Part shown: positions 983-57,296 of the stretch, in pieces | Layout: every line of letters begins with the position of its first letter | Numbering within the stretch: position 1 is the stretch's first letter | Assembly: GCA_030167865.1 (NCBI GenBank) | Contig: JALAGF010002173.1 | Span: 1-58,206, forward strand | Source: Craspedostauros australis | Lineage: Eukaryota | Length of the DNA: 58,206 bases | Direction of reading: 5' to 3' | Made by a program: the position numbers and the translations under genes | Notes under the pieces: generated by a model | The model's database searches: none | What the model was told of the DNA's origin: nothing | The model's input: the letters and a program-made list of their open reading frames with translations, nothing else

Positions 983-3900
983 ATGATCCGATCAAACCCA
1001 GAGGACTGCGTGGTGCGCAGGCAAATCAGCCGCGTAGACTTTGGGTATGTTGCCATCGGCTTTGCACCACCCTTCCCTTGAGCATTCCAACTTCCGCCAT
1101 TCGCTGCTCCCTTCCTTGAACATCTCATTGCATCCTGGATCTGATCATGATGGCGCCATCACTGTCTCTGCCACGGCGGCCATTCCCAATGCAGGCACAG
1201 CATTGACTATCGCGATAACTTGCGTTGTGGGTGCTGTCGAAATTGGACGGCAGAACATGGCGAGGCACATCTTCCACTTGGTCCACCTTTTGCCCCGCAA
1301 ATGCCATTCCATCTAACGATGTGATCACTTGTCACTTATCACCTTTCCTTGCCACAAAATTAATCGTTCGCAATGCATTGCTCAGATTTTATGTGGACGA
1401 CGACGTCCGCAACCGCAGCGTCTGCGAGATCAAGTCCAACCAGGCCCTGGATGCGGTCGGCACGGCGCTCCCAGGCGGACTGTACGATCCGCGAATGGGA
1501 CCGGCTGGAAGCAAGGACCCACCGTGCCCAACTTGCGCGTGTCAGTTCCTCACCTGCCCGGGACATTTCGGACACATCGAGCTATGCGTGCCTGTGTACC
1601 AACCCCTTCTCTTCAGCAAGATCATGAACATGCTGCAACTCAAGTGCTTCAATTGCCACAGACTGCGAGCCTCGAGCCGAGCCATGGAGATTGTGAAACT
1701 CAAACTGAAGTTGCTGGAGGTTGGACAGTATTCCCGTGCGCTGGAGGTTGATGATATCTTGGCCTCGGTCACGAAGTCAAAGATGGGAACCGATAAGAAG
1801 GTATCCATCCGCGCAGCTGCTGCCGCCATCGACACAGCGCTGAAGGACATCATGGAGTCAATCGCTGGGCTGCCACCGATTGGCGATCCCCCTTCGACCT
1901 TTGAACAGGCTCTGCACCGTGACCTCGTCGCGGAGATATCTTCGGCCTGTAAGTCTGCAAAAAAGTGTCATAGTTGTGGTGCATTCTCGCCGAAGGTCCG
2001 TCACGATTCCAGCAACAAGATCTTCCAGTCACCGCTGGCGGAGGCCTCCAGAAGGTCGAACGAGGCCGAGGGGATCAAACTGGTGGCTGCCATGGGCGCC
2101 AATTCTAAGGAAGTGGCATCCGGCAGCTCTGACGAAGACTCTGCGTCTGACATGGATGTGGAGGACGGGGAAGATTCTCGGGTGAACTCAAAGCGTGACA
2201 AGTACCTCCACTCAGGTGAAGTTCAGGCCCAAATCAAGTTGACATGGAAGCGTAACCCGTACCTCTGCGAGCAACTTTTCGCCCTGCAGGGATACAAACC
2301 ATTCTTCATCCAGGCAGTGCCCGTGCCACCCAGCCGATTCCGTCCTCCGATGCACCTTGGTGGCATGGCGGTGGAGCACTCGCAGAATGCTTACCTTTCC
2401 CGCATCATCACGGCGAACGAACTCGTTCGAGCATCCTTCACCTCCGGAGCCGAAGCGCAGGCGTACAAACATTGGATCGACCTCCAAACTCAGGTCAATT
2501 GCTTTATTGACAGCTCCAAGGACCCGGGCAACAGCCCAAACACGCCATTGGGCATCCGTCAGCTCCTCGAACGAAAGGAGGGAATCTTCCGCAAGCACAT
2601 GATGGGAAAGCGCGTCGACTTCGCATGCCGTTCCGTCATTTCCCCAGATCCGTACGTCGGCACCAACGAAATCGGCCTGCCCAGGCACTTCGCAATCAAC
2701 CTTACTTACCCCACGCCTGTGACCGACATCAACATCGATGAGATGCGAAACCTGGTGGAGCGAGGTCCTGACAACTACCCTGGAGCACGTTGGATCCAGT
2801 TCCCCGATCGCAAGGTGGACCTTGGAAAGATGAATGAGCACAAGAGACAGGCAGTGGCAGCACGATTGCTTGTGAACTTGAAGAAGGGAGGAAAGCCTGC
2901 CATTGTCGGAAGACAGCTGAGGGATGGTGACATGGTGCTGATGAATCGTCAGGTGAGTGCAGCACAATGCTTTCGTGACAACGAAACGCGCGGGCTCATT
3001 TATGCTCTGACTGGCCAGCCACTCCAATGATGACAAAAAGTCATGCACCACTCTGACTTTGGGAGATGAGAAATGACACCTCCAGATTTGTTGCAGCAGA
3101 AATGTTGCACCCTATGCTGGACTGATGGAAGTGAAACTGATCTTTGTCTGAACACTGGTGGAAACATGATGGAACGGACGAACCTCACATACCCTCCGAC
3201 TCCTGCAATCTCTAAACTTCCTCATCATGGAATCTTCTCATTTGACTTCACTTCATGTGATTCAAAATCGTGATCGTTCTTGCTTTGCCCTGGCTCCCTT
3301 CGCTGTCACGTGTTGCATCTATCTATCTCCTCTCGTACCTAGCCAACATTGCACAAGCCTGGAATCATGGCACACGAAGTTCGCGTGCTTCACAACCCGA
3401 CGCAGAAGACAATTCGAATGCACTACGCAAGTAAGTACGAGCAATGGGTGTCGTCTACAATCGCGTTCTGAGGCCAAATTGAGGGATTCATTTCCGTGAC
3501 CCCGCCTTCCTCTTGCATCCGTCACACAATTTTGCACTGGTCACAGCAGAGCCGCGAATTCTCATCAAGCCCCTTTGTTTGTGCATGGCCTTGCATTGAA
3601 CTGCATTGTGTTACATATTCTACATAATTTGCACACTATCCTATTTTGTTGGAAGACTGCAACACCTACAATGCCGATTTCGATGGAGACGAGATGAACT
3701 GCCATTTCCCACAGAGTGATCTCGGACGCGCCGAAGCCGAATTCATCGCCAAGACCGACCTCCAGTACATCGCGCCGACCGACGGTTCACCACTCCGTGG
3801 TTTGATCCAGGATCACGTCGTGGCTGGCGTCAAATTGACCAAACGGGACACCTTCATCGAGAAGTGGGAGTACCAGCAACTGCTGTTTGCCGCGCTCGCA

Positions 3901-6900
3901 AGTTTGCCGCGTCTCGAACTCATTCGTTCGAGCGACGAAATCGAGCTCATGCCACCCACCATCCGGAAACCGAAGGAGCTCTGGACCGGAAAGCAGGTGA
4001 TCACAACTCTTCTGAGGCACTTGGCGAAGGGAAATGACCGCGACTCCGCCAAGGGCATGAACCTGCCAGGCGTGTCCACCGAAAGGAAGACGAAGACCCC
4101 CGGCGCTGCATTCGGAGATGCCAACAAGGAAAACCAGGTGCTGATTCGCGACGGCGAACTGCTTCGTGGCGTGCTGGACAAGGCAGCCTTCGGATCTACG
4201 GACTTCTCTCTCGTCCACTCCGTTTACGAGGCCTACGGTCCAGAGAAGGCAGGGCTGCTTCTGAATTCCTTCGGCAGACTCTTCACAGCATATCTGCAGT
4301 ATTATTCAGGCCATTCGTGCAGAATGGAAGATCTGGTCCTCACACGAGAGGCAGACGCTGCAAGGCGCGAGCTGGTGCAGGTACGTGTTCCTCTTCCGTT
4401 TCCAGTTTCTCCTCCTCGTTGTACCCATGATGCTCTGTATCTGGTGTCTTGGATGCATGCGATATTTGCTCGAGCGCACTACTGGTCGGAGGGCTCGTAG
4501 CAAAGTGCAATGGACTGCGCGCTTCGTTTGACGAGAAAACACTTCGAATCTGCTGCGCTCTTGCATACTCTACCGAAGTTCGAGACGAGTGATTCAAAAG
4601 CCGTATCATCCTCCTTCCTCACACTTACGCACCTATTGCTTGCTCTACGTGCATCGCATGTCAAATCAATACCACATCATGGGATTGCATCCTCCATCTA
4701 TCTCTATGCACATCGGCAATGCAGGAGGCATTTGTGATGGGGTCCCGGTCAGCGAAGGCGTGGGCCGATTCCGAAGGTGGAAAGGTATCCATCGTCGTGG
4801 AGGAGTCGAACAAGAGCAATGACCTGAAACCGGTCGAGGCAGCCGCAGCAGCATCGAAGATCAGAACGCTTCTCTCTGGCAATGAAGGCAAGGAGAATGC
4901 AGCATCGCTCGATGGATTTATGATGTCCAAGCTGAACCCGCTGGCCTCCAAGATCGTCAAGTGCTGCCTCCCTGGCGGCCTGGCCGTTCCATTCCCGACC
5001 AACGTGAGTACTCTTTCTATTCTATCGTATGGTGCTCAATATCGATGATTTCAAGTGCTGTGGAGACCGCTGTGATAGCCTGATCCAACCACATACGTCG
5101 AGCGAGGAATGCGTTCATGCCATCTCACAATTGACCCCATTGTCTTCTTCATGATTCTACACCCACACCTACATTCTTCCGTCACCATTCGCAGACATTT
5201 GGTATCATGGTGACCACCGGCGCGAAAGGATCCATTGTCAATCAATCCCAAGTATCATGCGCGCTCGGTCAGCAGGCGCTTGAGGGACGCAGAGTGCCTC
5301 GAATGAGCAGCGGGCGCACACTGCCGTCATTCGCGCCGTACGATGTGAATCCTCGAGCAGATGGATTCGTGATGGATCGATTCCTCACAGGCATCCGTCC
5401 ACAGGAGTACTACTTCCACTGCATGGCGGGCAGAGAGGGTCTCGTCGACACTGCCGTGAAGACGTCGCGATCTGGATACCTGCAGCGTTGCCTCGTGAAG
5501 CACTTGGAGGAACTCAAGGTTGGCTACGATTTCACCGTTCGAGATGGGGAAGGCGGAGTCGTCCAGTTCCTTTACGGAGAAGATGGAATCGATCCCACGC
5601 AAGCCTCCTACCTTGACTGCACCAAGAAATCGTTCGAATTTATGGCGCGCAACTACGAAGCACTGGGTCGCCGCCAGAAAGCTCTTCCAGGGGCCTCCAT
5701 CCGTGTTGCCGCCGAGGATGCGGAGCGCCGCAAGGAGCTCGCAGCCGAAGATGGTGCCAAGGCGAAGGTGGGTGACTTCGTGCAGGCCAGACGCCTTCGT
5801 TTTGGCGACGAATGGTGTCGTGGTGCCCTTTGCCTTGGCTGGCATGATGCAATCATCGTCGATCTTTACGAGACGAAGAAGGGACGAGCTATCGCTGATT
5901 TGAAGTACCTGAAGGACGATGCGGTCGTCAAGCGCGTTCCGTTCGAAGCCGACTTTGGCGTGCGGGGCAAGGTTGTTCACAGCGTTGCCAAGATCATCAA
6001 GGCTGCTGTGCCGGACCCAGTCATCTCCACGCCGCAACGCGGGGGCATGCTCGGACGAACTGGCATCTCTATCTCTGAAAAAGTTGCAGAATCGGCGGTT
6101 GGGCACATCCAGAAAAGTCCAGCCATGCGCCAAATCTTGGATTCCAAGTCGATCTCTGACGAATCCTTTGGGTCTCTGATTGCTGCAAAGTACAGCTCTT
6201 CGATCTGCGCTCCTGGAGAAGCAGTCGGTAGTATTGCAGCCCAGTCCATCGGAGAGCCGTCCACGCAGATGACCCTCAATACTTTCCATCTTGGTAAGTG
6301 CCCGCAATCATTCATTCTAGGTTGCTCTGGAAGTGTCTTGTGAATGAATTCTGCCCATTGCTCTGCTTTGCTGGTCTTGTCTGAGTGATGCGATTTGATG
6401 TGGTGCGGAGTTATGGTGGAACCTGGGGGATGGATTTCCCGCCATGTGAGCATCATGAATCTGAATTGTTAAACGGCGTGCCATCATTGCATCGACCACT
6501 GGCTTTTGCGGGCTGGATATGGCCTGCACGAGGAGCATAGCGCCGCTGCCCAGCCAATGAACGAACCACCGAACCAACTGCAAAAGAATCCATCTTTCCT
6601 GACCTCACACCCTTTGCGCCTTTCTTCATCGTTTCGTGATCTCAACGTCATCTTCTCATCCCCATCTTCCAATCCTACGCTTGCAGCTGGAGCTGGTGCG
6701 AATGTGACCCTTGGAATTCCTCGACTGAGAGAGATCATCATGACAGCATCGAGGGCAATCAAGACGCCGACGATGTCTGTGCCTTTGGACGACTCTGTTA
6801 CAGACAAGGATGCCACCCGTCTCACCCGTTCGTTTGCCAGACTGACGCTGAACGAGCTGATCAGAGGTGAAAAAGGAGTCGTCGTCAGAGAATCATTGGA

Positions 6901-8062
6901 GAGCAACGGAGGCGGTGAATGGGAGCGATCCTACAAGATCTGCATCTCGTTCCATCCCGCTGAACGCATCCTCGAAGCCTTCGGATTGACCTTGCACGAT
7001 ATCGCCGCAGTTGTGAATCACCAATTCATCAAGGTTCTGAATCACTTGATCAAGACAGAGGTTCGCAGATCATCCACGGGAGATGAGAAGAACCACTCCG
7101 TCGCGGGCGCCGACGAAGCTACGATCATCGGCGACGAAGAGACCAACGACCGTGCCAAGGCGAAGGGCAAGACCAAGTCGGGCGGACGTGGAAACGACGA
7201 CAATTCAGGCGGTGAGTTGTCGGAAGACGAAAGCGTCGATTCCATTTTGAATCAAGAAGATGGCGCTTCCAAGACACAGAAGGATGCCTACGACAGCGAC
7301 GACGACGATGATGATGATGATGATGGAGCAAGGCAAGGCAAATCTGGGAAGGTTGCTACCGGCAAGAACACATCCGGCGGCTCAAAAGATAGCGACATTG
7401 ATGAAGACGACGATGACGATGAAAATGCCGTCCATAACCCTATCGGTGACTCCAAGCATTCGTTGGTCATTGATACGAAGGCGAATTCCATCCAGCTGAA
7501 GCCGATCCGCATCGACCCATCGGCGCGACCACTGCTCATGGTGGGCCTTGTGGAGCAGGCTGCGAGGAAGGCCATTGTCCACAGCAGACCTCGCATCGAT
7601 CAGGCATACATCAATGATGAAGAGGGTCGTGGACGTTGCTTGCAAACGGCAGGAGTGAACTTCGAGGAACTCTGGAAGCTGTCAAACGTCGCGCACAACA
7701 AGCTCATGTCCAACGATGTTTGGGCCGTGCGTACGGCGTATGGTGTGGAGGCCGCCAGGAACAATATCGTCGATCAAGTTCGTAGCGTGTTTGGTGCCTA
7801 CGGTATCGAAGTCGATCCGCGTCACTTGACGCTCATTGCCGATTACATGACATACAGCGGCGGTTACACCGCGATGAACCGTATCGGAATGAAGGACACG
7901 AGCTCTCCATTCTTGCAGATGAGTTTCGAGACCACGGCAACCTTCCTCACACAGGCTGCCCTAAGTGGAACGTGCGATCAGCTCAAGAGTCCAAGTGCCA
8001 ACATCGTCGTTGGACGTCCAATCCGCCATGGAACGGGAGCATTTTCGTTGCTGGTTCAGTAG
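983..8062 (+). CDS. RPA1: DNA-directed RNA polymerase I largest subunit (A190/POLR1A), 7 exons, 1731 aa
   Basis: Exons 983-1044, 1386-2952, 3343-3430, 3656-4380, 4725-5003, 5195-6293, 6687-8062 (5196 nt, in frame, all GT..AG). Motifs: GGLYDPRMG, zinc site CPTC..CPGHFGHIEL, GIFRKHMMGKRVD, NRQ|PTLH, catalytic NADFDGDEMN, bridge helix MAGREGLVDTAVKTSRSGYLQRCLVK, trigger loop SIGEPSTQMTLNTFH..NVTLGIPRLREI, and MSFET. An acidic expander-like insert (about 7080-7440) and the absence of CTD heptads indicate Pol I. Confidence 0.96.
3020..3133 (+). ncRNA. Intronic box C/D snoRNA (snR40/SNORD32-like guide for 18S rRNA) in RPA1 intron 2
   Basis: Box C ATGATGA 3027-3033, D' CTGA 3053-3056, C'-like ATGAGAA 3066-3072, box D CTGA 3122-3125, terminal stem CACTCCA/TGGAAGTG. 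The guide GTCATGCACCAC (3040-3051) is complementary (one G:U) to conserved 18S GUGGUGCAUGGC. Confidence 0.75.
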
Positions 8063-57229: not shown

Positions 57230-57296
57230 NNNNNNNNNNNNNNNNNNNNNNNNNNNNNNNNNNNNNNNNNNNNNNNNNNNNNNNNNNNNNNNNNNN
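57230..57296. other. Assembly gap (67 N)
   Basis: Run of n characters. Confidence 1.

Follow-up and report, generated by a model that had tools for sequence, protein, structure and literature searches.

Analysis of a 58,206 nt contig of Craspedostauros australis (JALAGF010002173.1, assembly GCA_030167865.1; the whole stretch is called the window in the following) points to a small nucleolar RNA (snoRNA) of the box C/D class at positions 3020-3133 of the plus strand, inside an intron of RPA1, the gene encoding the largest subunit of RNA polymerase I (Pol I). Judged from its sequence, the element is very probably a functional intronic snoRNA derived from the RPA1 pre-mRNA, which would guide fibrillarin to the G of 18S rRNA that is equivalent to yeast Gm1271. 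The weight of the evidence lies in the guide and in its conservation, not in the box architecture alone.

Architecture of the predicted snoRNA

The predicted snoRNA consists of the following parts (MFE, minimum free energy):

3020-3133, plus strand: predicted snoRNA, approximately 105-114 nt, intron-borne in RPA1
3020-3026, plus strand: 5' strand of the terminal stem, CACTCCA, pairing with 3126-3133 (7 bp, one bulged A)
3027-3033, plus strand: C box, ATGATGA, read directly in the sequence
3040-3052, plus strand: D' antisense element GTCATGCACCACT, 13 nt; C3048, the fifth nucleotide counted upstream from D', lies opposite the target G
3053-3056, plus strand: D' box, CTGA, read directly; it aligns with the D' box of three Rfam families
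3064-3069, plus strand: putative C'-like box, AGATGA (5/6 to TGATGA), 7 nt after D'
3073-3079, plus strand: conserved ATGACAC, whose AUGAC is complementary to the GUCAU of the guide
3092-3109, plus strand: internal hairpin TGCAGCA GAAA TGTTGCA, 7 bp with a GAAA loop, present in the MFE and centroid folds
3110-3121, plus strand: putative D antisense element CCCTATGCTGGA, 12 nt, between the GAAA hairpin and the D box
3122-3125, plus strand: D box, CTGA, read directly; the 3' stem strand follows immediately
3126-3133, plus strand: 3' strand of the terminal stem, TGGAAGTG, partner of 3020-3026

The features that define box C/D snoRNAs were found together in this element: a C box (RUGAUGA) towards the 5' end, a D box (CUGA) towards the 3' end, a terminal stem joining the two, internal D' and C' boxes, of which D' is exact and C' an inferred 5/6 match, and an antisense element of at least 10 nt that abuts D' and places a known methylated rRNA nucleotide opposite its fifth position. 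The stem 3020-3026/3126-3133 was recovered in the MFE fold (ViennaRNA), in which ATGACAC 3073-3079 also pairs with nucleotides 3041-3045 of the guide. The energy of the fold is ordinary (z -1.55; 15 of 200 shuffled sequences folded equally well in ViennaRNA), and an unremarkable fold energy is usual for C/D RNAs. An initial annotation of this DNA had proposed a box C/D snoRNA with C, D', C'-like and D boxes and a terminal stem; all of these were found on the plus strand where it had placed them, and the boxes, the stem, the guide and the conservation described below bear out the class. An alternative, more distal D box at 3149-3152 was rejected, its flank pairing being poor beside that of 3122-3125.

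The pattern TGATGA-N(2-16)-CATGCACCACTCTGA, which joins C box, guide and D' box, occurs once in the window and was absent from all of 100 dinucleotide shuffles. When 3057-3342 was shuffled with the C box given, 21 of 20000 trials produced a CTGA located 30-200 nt past D' and followed by a strand that pairs over 7 bp or more with the 5' flank.

The D' guide and its predicted target in 18S rRNA

The D' guide is complementary to the 18S rRNA sequence GGUGGUGCAUGGC, and the nucleotide selected is a G. With GGTGGTGCATGGC of eukaryotic small subunit (SSU) rRNA it can form 13 bp, 11 Watson-Crick and 2 G-U, in which C3048, at the D'+5 position, is opposite the fifth base of GGTGGTGCATGGC, a G; the context of this nucleotide in 18S rRNA is GGUG[G]UGCAUGGC, the target being in brackets. 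The window contains no rRNA, and the presence of the site was therefore examined in pieces of eukaryotic ribosomal DNA (rDNA), which had been fetched as contaminants from viral and prokaryotic collections by means of a short conserved 18S motif. The site was found in all 42 pieces, but the fetch motif contains the site, and the result shows that it exists in eukaryotic 18S rRNA, not how frequent it is. Rfam confirmed L123, L137, L161, L164 and L165 as SSU_rRNA_eukarya.

In the part of PMC4344503 that was available, the D' guide of yeast snR40 is described as directing the methylation of 18S Gm1271 by the D+5 rule, and U32A as its human homologue. The equivalent sites, as given in the available part of PMC8817022, are Dictyostelium Gm1266 (CD37), yeast Gm1271 (snR40), human Gm1328 and Arabidopsis Gm1272 (AtsnoR21). 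The initial annotation had derived the target G from the same distance rule and had equated it with the yeast and human sites; the 13 bp with C3048 opposite the G agree with the first step, and the Rfam register (see below), together with these excerpts of PMC4344503 and PMC8817022, with the second. The prediction that the target G corresponds to yeast Gm1271 and human Gm1328 is thus supported at the level of sequence comparison.

The rDNA pieces were also of note for where they had been filed. Eukaryotic 18S, 5.8S and large subunit (LSU) rDNA was present at no fewer than 40 loci (L126-L165) in contigs deposited as bacterial genomes or metagenome-assembled genomes, and eukaryotic rDNA was found within IMG/VR viral contigs as well (L123-L125). 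These placements (L123-L165) are contamination or chimeras. At L164 a group I intron lies between the SSU and 5.8S matches (Rfam, 85.5 bits).

Relation to known snoRNA families

When the window was compared with 4227 Rfam families on both strands, the sole match with E <= 0.5 was to snoZ221_snoR21b, at 3022-3096 (29.2 bits, E 0.038). A local Rfam scan gave 18.1 bits for snoMe18S-Gm1358 and 17.4 bits for snR40. The guide and the D' box fall into one register in the alignments to all three families.

In the comparison with plant snoZ221/snoR21b (RF00300; AtsnoR21), the window agrees exactly with the family consensus in its C box, in the guide AGUCAUGCACCACU and in its D' box, whereas the 3' half is unrelated, so only the 5' half aligns. 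Arabidopsis Gm1272, the site of AtsnoR21, is the equivalent of the window's target site (PMC8817022, available part). Plant-type loci found in metagenomes (e.g. L020, L044, L063) often carry tandem copies, in contrast to the location of the window element in an RPA1 intron. Copies of a snoRNA with the same guide were seen in tandem, 270-2100 nt apart, at L020, L044, L049, L063/L064, L071 and L121; tandem clusters of this kind are typical of plants and some other lineages, as opposed to the single intronic copy of diatoms.

Yeast snR40 is an independent gene, and the host of human U32A is the ribosomal-protein gene RPL13A; the window element lies in an intron of RPA1 instead. With snR40 (RF01201, clan CL00054) it shares the C/D class and a D' guide that picks the equivalent 18S G (Gm1271) in the same register, but the D guide of snR40 directs 25S Um898 (PMC4344503, available part), which the D element of the window matches only at chance level. 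Human U32A/SNORD32A (RF00133) resembles the window element in being intronic; it is described as the snR40 homologue (PMC4344503) and assigned to 18S Gm1328 (PMC8817022) in the available parts of these papers. To its family, Z195/SNORD33/SNORD32 of the clan CL00054 (gathering threshold 44), the window gave no match at E <= 10. With Drosophila snoMe18S-Gm1358 (RF00533) and Dictyostelium CD37 the window element has in common both the 18S site and the guide core, CAUGCACCACU-CUGA (Rfam alignment; PMC8817022, available part). According to the same part of that paper, Dictyostelium C/D snoRNAs other than CD38 are nearly all intergenic, whereas that of the window is intronic.

The host intron and the RPA1 gene

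The host gene and the intron have the following layout:

1366-8059, plus strand: RPA1, Pol I largest subunit, with Pfam Rpb1 domains 1-5 over the exons
1366-2952, 3343-3431, ~3650-4380+, 4719-5006, 5192-6322 and 6662-8059, plus strand: RPA1 exons, approximate
2953-3342, plus strand: host intron, 390 nt, GT...AG, phase 0, between ...GDMVLMNRQ and PTLHKPGIMAH...

The segment 2953-3342 is confirmed as an intron: the match to the Pfam profile RNA_pol_Rpb1_2 breaks off with the upstream exon at profile position 106 and is taken up again with position 107 at base 3343, and the ends are GT...AG. Alignments of diatom RPA1 proteins cover 1366-2952 and 3343-3432. Among solved structures, Pol I RPA190/RPA1 gave the best matches (1.2e-76 to 1e-66, compared with 2.5e-44 for RPB1 and 5e-35 for RPC1), and of the named proteins those that come closest are the RPA1 of Cylindrotheca closterium, Pseudo-nitzschia and Fragilariopsis, with approximately 60-63% identity over the gene. 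The first 15-20 residues of the homologues are not encoded by the exon that begins near 1366, therefore at least one further exon and intron must lie farther upstream, and designation of the host intron as RPA1 intron 2 is plausible.

A quick maximum-likelihood tree of RPA1 was built from 43 rows, comprising 38 of 120 retrieved proteins (the named ones and the nearest unnamed ones), the window and the metagenome loci L005, L015, L028 and L062; L089, L095 and L109 were excluded as too short. The window RPA1 was placed within the raphid pennates (98-100% support in the SH-like approximate likelihood ratio test, SH-aLRT) as the sister of a Bacillariales clade of Cylindrotheca, Fragilariopsis and Pseudo-nitzschia (98% SH-aLRT), a position which supports a diatom origin of the DNA. 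The boundaries of the intron, the identity of the host and the diatom source had all been given in the initial annotation, and each agrees with the profile, the structure matches and the tree, respectively.

Conservation in RPA1 introns of other algae

A metagenome scan with the pattern of C box, guide and D' box yielded at least 122 loci, most of which come from plants, animals and other eukaryotes, are clearly orthologous and possess their own D boxes and terminal stems; viral contigs gave no match to the pattern. When the translations of the window's five RPA1 exons were compared with the 122 listed loci by tblastn, RPA1 exons were found beside the snoRNA at nine of these at least 122 loci (L005, L015, L028, L057, L062, L076, L089, L095 and L109). 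At the other 113 the available flank extended to at most 3 kb where the locus was among the first 80, and to at most 300 nt otherwise.

At L005, L028, L057, L076, L062, L089 and L095 the snoRNA is encoded in sense orientation between ...GDMVLMNRQ and PTLHKPGIMAHRV, and L109 starts inside the intron, with the downstream exon alone visible. The introns of L028, L057 and L076 are identical and that of L109 is nearly identical to L005, which leaves five distinct intron sequences. RPA1 of these centric-type loci is 70-81% identical to the Thalassiosira and Cyclotella proteins, and the RPA1 tree places L005, L028 and L062 within Thalassiosirales with 100% support. The matching position of the intron, taken together with the tree, indicates that one RPA1 intron holds the snoRNA in pennate and centric diatoms: the guide, the sense orientation and the NRQ/PTLHKP intron of RPA1 coincide in the window and in five Thalassiosirales-like introns. 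Conservation in the same intron of other diatoms had been suggested as a check on the snoRNA, and boxes and guide were indeed present in all five.

In the 5' module, from the stem strand to ATGACAC, the window and the centric loci are identical at 45-49 of 60-64 nt, and in the flanks at 29-34 of 67 nt upstream and 68-82 of 209 nt downstream. The sequence TCCAATGATGA at the C box is common to the window, L005 and L028. All six centric homologues have a C'-like motif (AGATGT or TGACGA) 5-7 nt after D', and ATGACAC is present in the window and in every one of them.

The remaining RPA1 locus, L015 (56% G+C), is not a diatom. Its RPA1 groups with five unnamed proteins (100% support) in an ochrophyte clade that is separate from diatoms, bolidophytes, brown algae and oomycetes. 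At NRQ|P the gene of L015 is not interrupted by an intron; the snoRNA (~2991-3111) occupies the following intron of RPA1 (2835-3283), which lies 49 codons farther downstream, behind ...DEMNAHFVQ. It is a canonical snoRNA that has the same guide core, a 6-bp terminal stem (GTATTC/GAATAC), a D' box, a hairpin between D' and C', and CTGA as its D box. Whether the snoRNA changed introns within RPA1 or was captured by RPA1 twice is a choice that one locus cannot decide. It can be proposed tentatively, with a little less than even confidence, that the linkage between RPA1 and the guide predates the split of pennates and centrics and goes back, probably, to an earlier ochrophyte ancestor. If so, the snoRNA would have kept RPA1 as its host even in a different intron, as in L015, the NRQ|PTLHKP intron would have been retained in diatoms because of its snoRNA, and each RPA1 transcript would yield one guide, which would couple the supply of an rRNA-modifying small nucleolar ribonucleoprotein (snoRNP) to the production of the very enzyme by which its substrate is made.

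Evidence against the interpretation and alternative readings

Several results count against a functional guide snoRNA at 3020-3133. The default Rfam scan at gathering thresholds gave no match in the window, and the scores mentioned above are all below these thresholds (29.2 vs 44 for Z221/R21b, 17.4 vs 50 for snR40 and 18.1 vs 50 for snoMe18S-Gm1358), thus the snoRNA, although it would act in the manner of these families, is by the Rfam criterion not assignable to any of them. The centric homologues are sub-threshold as well, with 26-31 bits for Z221/R21b, 21.9-26.6 bits for SNORD33/32 (RF00133) and 21-26 bits for Me18S-Gm1358. A crude scan for a bare C box, D box and stem of at least 4 bp found six sites in the window on both strands, and for this reason such an architecture is weak evidence. 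The test of conservation is partly circular: 21 pattern bases were imposed by the search, and their identity in the relatives is not independent of it. What is conserved independently of the pattern comprises the host gene with its intron, TCCAA in front of the C box, AGT in front of the guide core, and ATGACAC. No pennate relative was recovered among the metagenome matches listed. The 3' end of the predicted snoRNA is 209 nt upstream of the 3' splice site, farther than the optimum of approximately 70-80 nt reported for vertebrate intronic C/D snoRNAs. Finally, the centric homologues are ~50 nt longer, and their 3' half (D guide, D box and stem) is poorly alignable with the window, thus the 3' end of the window element has to be read from the window's own sequence.

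The low Rfam scores and the six chance sites would fit a chance resemblance, or a conserved cis-element of the RPA1 intron with a role in splicing or autoregulation, in place of a trans-acting guide. Such an explanation appears most improbable, since the pattern of C box, guide and D' box did not arise in the shuffled sequences, and the same 18S antisense element with proper boxes is found at more than 100 metagenome loci outside RPA1 in many eukaryotes. Moreover, L015 retains the snoRNA in another intron, which argues that the RNA itself, and not a position-specific splicing signal, is the selected unit.

The centric long form was located as follows:

L005, 2868-3045, minus strand: centric long form
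L028, 2008-2191, plus strand: centric long form
L062, 2866-3046, minus strand: centric long form
L089, 167-346, minus strand: centric long form
L095, 287-467, plus strand: centric long form

In six centric homologues the distance from the TGATGA start of the C box to a conserved TCGTACAGAGGA is 128-150 nt. This motif holds CAGA, not CTGA, and the strand next to it pairs with the flank of the C box (terminal stem GAATCC/GGATTC in L005; ATCC/GGAT with an outer AGTTG/CAACT in L062). Where the window has its 7-bp GAAA hairpin, the centric homologues have a hairpin of 16-18 bp with a GAAA cap. RNAalifold, applied to the centric set, found a double compensatory change in 1 of 44 pairs; with this single pair, in a small and closely related set, support from covariation is thin.

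The ends of the six homologues at TCGTACAGAGGA and its terminal stem raise the question of whether the mature RNA of the window, too, extends 3' to a more distal D-type box, with the CTGA at 3122 being internal, for example as part of a TGATGG motif; the CTGATGG of the window does resemble the TTGATGG in the centric hairpin. A longer RNA is nevertheless unlikely. Farther downstream in the window there is no CAGAGGA-like motif with flank pairing, while the CTGA at 3122 directly precedes the 7 bp to the C-box flank, an arrangement seldom reproduced by the shuffles described above. The window also has a GAAA hairpin of its own upstream of this CTGA, which gives a consistent, shorter version of the centric layout. 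Compared by eye, the GAAA hairpin, the 12 nt, the CTGA and the stem of the window would thus represent a shortened homologue of that layout, and a D box at 3122-3125 is the reading that we prefer.

Some peculiarities were seen in the centric form itself. A conserved segment, AUCGGGUGG, is complementary to the 3' part of the RNA's own guide and to the D' box, and may mask the guide intramolecularly. With the CAGA D box, the 16-18 bp GAAA hairpin and the self-complementary segment, the long form may have a role in addition to methylation guidance.

Copies of the snoRNA outside RPA1 were also encountered. L100 (482 nt) is an extra centric-type copy without RPA1 flanks, its upstream exon not being RPA1-like, and at L011/L114 a copy that ends after ~90 nt lies behind an amino-acid-transporter-like open frame, again without RPA1 flanks; both may be transposed copies. 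These extra copies, one of them incomplete, indicate that multi-copy families with dead members occur, and they lend some substance to the idea that the window element is a decaying or silent copy, relic or retro-copy, with the functional guide encoded elsewhere in the genome. This is highly unlikely for 3020-3133, where boxes, stem and the full guide are all intact, and where the location in the RPA1 intron has been kept in pennates and centrics while the rest of the intron is at background identity. A functional snoRNA at the RPA1 locus thus remains the preferred interpretation.

The putative second guide

The initial annotation had suggested, as a weaker match, that the element preceding the D box guides modification of the UAUAGGG region of LSU rRNA. 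The D element CCCTATGCTGGA can be paired over 12 nt with TTGGGTATAGGG of LSU rRNA, a sequence present in L149 and L162, with one mismatch, at position 3, and 3 G-U pairs. The site adjoins the region used by the D guide of snR40 for Um898, with the predicted nucleotide shifted by 3 nt. In the 109,511 nt of rDNA-bearing contigs, which stem from unnamed eukaryotes and not from known diatoms, the 12-nt element had 8 sites with at most one mismatch and 3 G-U pairs, and 79 sites with at most two mismatches and 3 G-U pairs. The match to LSU was rejected as evidence because 8 equally good sites exist in these contigs. Versions of the element extended to 14 and 18 nt had no site in the rDNA pieces at up to one mismatch and 3 G-U pairs. 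Coverage of LSU was verified for three pieces only, corresponding to model positions 1-2467, 1-1901 and 1-1491 of 3401, and L125, an LSU-like sequence of ~110 nt, gave no Rfam match. The D element is not conserved in the centric homologues. This part of the annotation was accordingly dropped, the match being at chance level and not conserved; the D element may be an orphan, or may have its target in the diatom's own rRNA, in the 3' third of LSU or in small nuclear RNAs.

Proposed mode of action and implications

Expression, processing, snoRNP assembly and methylation of the 18S G are predicted here by analogy of sequence, and the following course of events is envisaged. RNA polymerase II would transcribe the snoRNA within the RPA1 pre-mRNA, and Snu13, Nop58, Nop56 and fibrillarin would bind the kink-turn formed by the C/D boxes and the terminal stem. 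Once the intron had been spliced out and debranched, exonucleases would trim it down to the protected snoRNP. The 13-nt element that precedes D' would then pair, in the nucleolus, with its complement in 18S rRNA, and fibrillarin would 2'-O-methylate the G opposite the fifth nucleotide upstream of D', i.e. at the site of yeast Gm1271 and human Gm1328.

Genes that host snoRNAs tend to be genes of ribosome biogenesis or translation, and RPA1 fits this tendency. The available part of PMC5482813 describes introns bearing snoRNAs as positionally conserved, with which the pairing with RPA1 is also in line. In view of both, the locus extends a known principle and overturns none. The kind of snoRNA is itself already known; what is new is its conserved, apparently ancient pairing with the gene of the catalytic subunit of Pol I. 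Searches of the literature by title and abstract found neither a snoRNA hosted by RPA1 or another Pol I subunit gene nor a catalogue of diatom snoRNAs, which is not proof of absence, and papers on small RNAs of diatoms mention snoRNAs only in passing (PMC4247016, PMC4156623). For snoRNAs and their host genes in diatoms hardly any catalogue exists. Since the default thresholds of Rfam miss this snoRNA, annotations of diatom genomes probably lack it. For diatoms the locus offers a concrete and testable candidate for the guide of a universally conserved 18S methylation, and an example of a pairing between snoRNA and host that appears to have been kept over very deep algal divergences, in which the product of the host gene makes the snoRNA's own substrate.

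Other features of the window

In the remaining part of the host intron, at 3166-3236, the plus strand has an ATGATGG and the minus strand has CCATGATGAGG, which corresponds to a snoR71-like match (3181-3233, E 2.8). This match was rejected as a second snoRNA, being at chance level and without D box or stem, and the same applies to the other, archaeal sR matches from the local Rfam scan. A run of 67 N at 57230-57296 of the window is an assembly gap.

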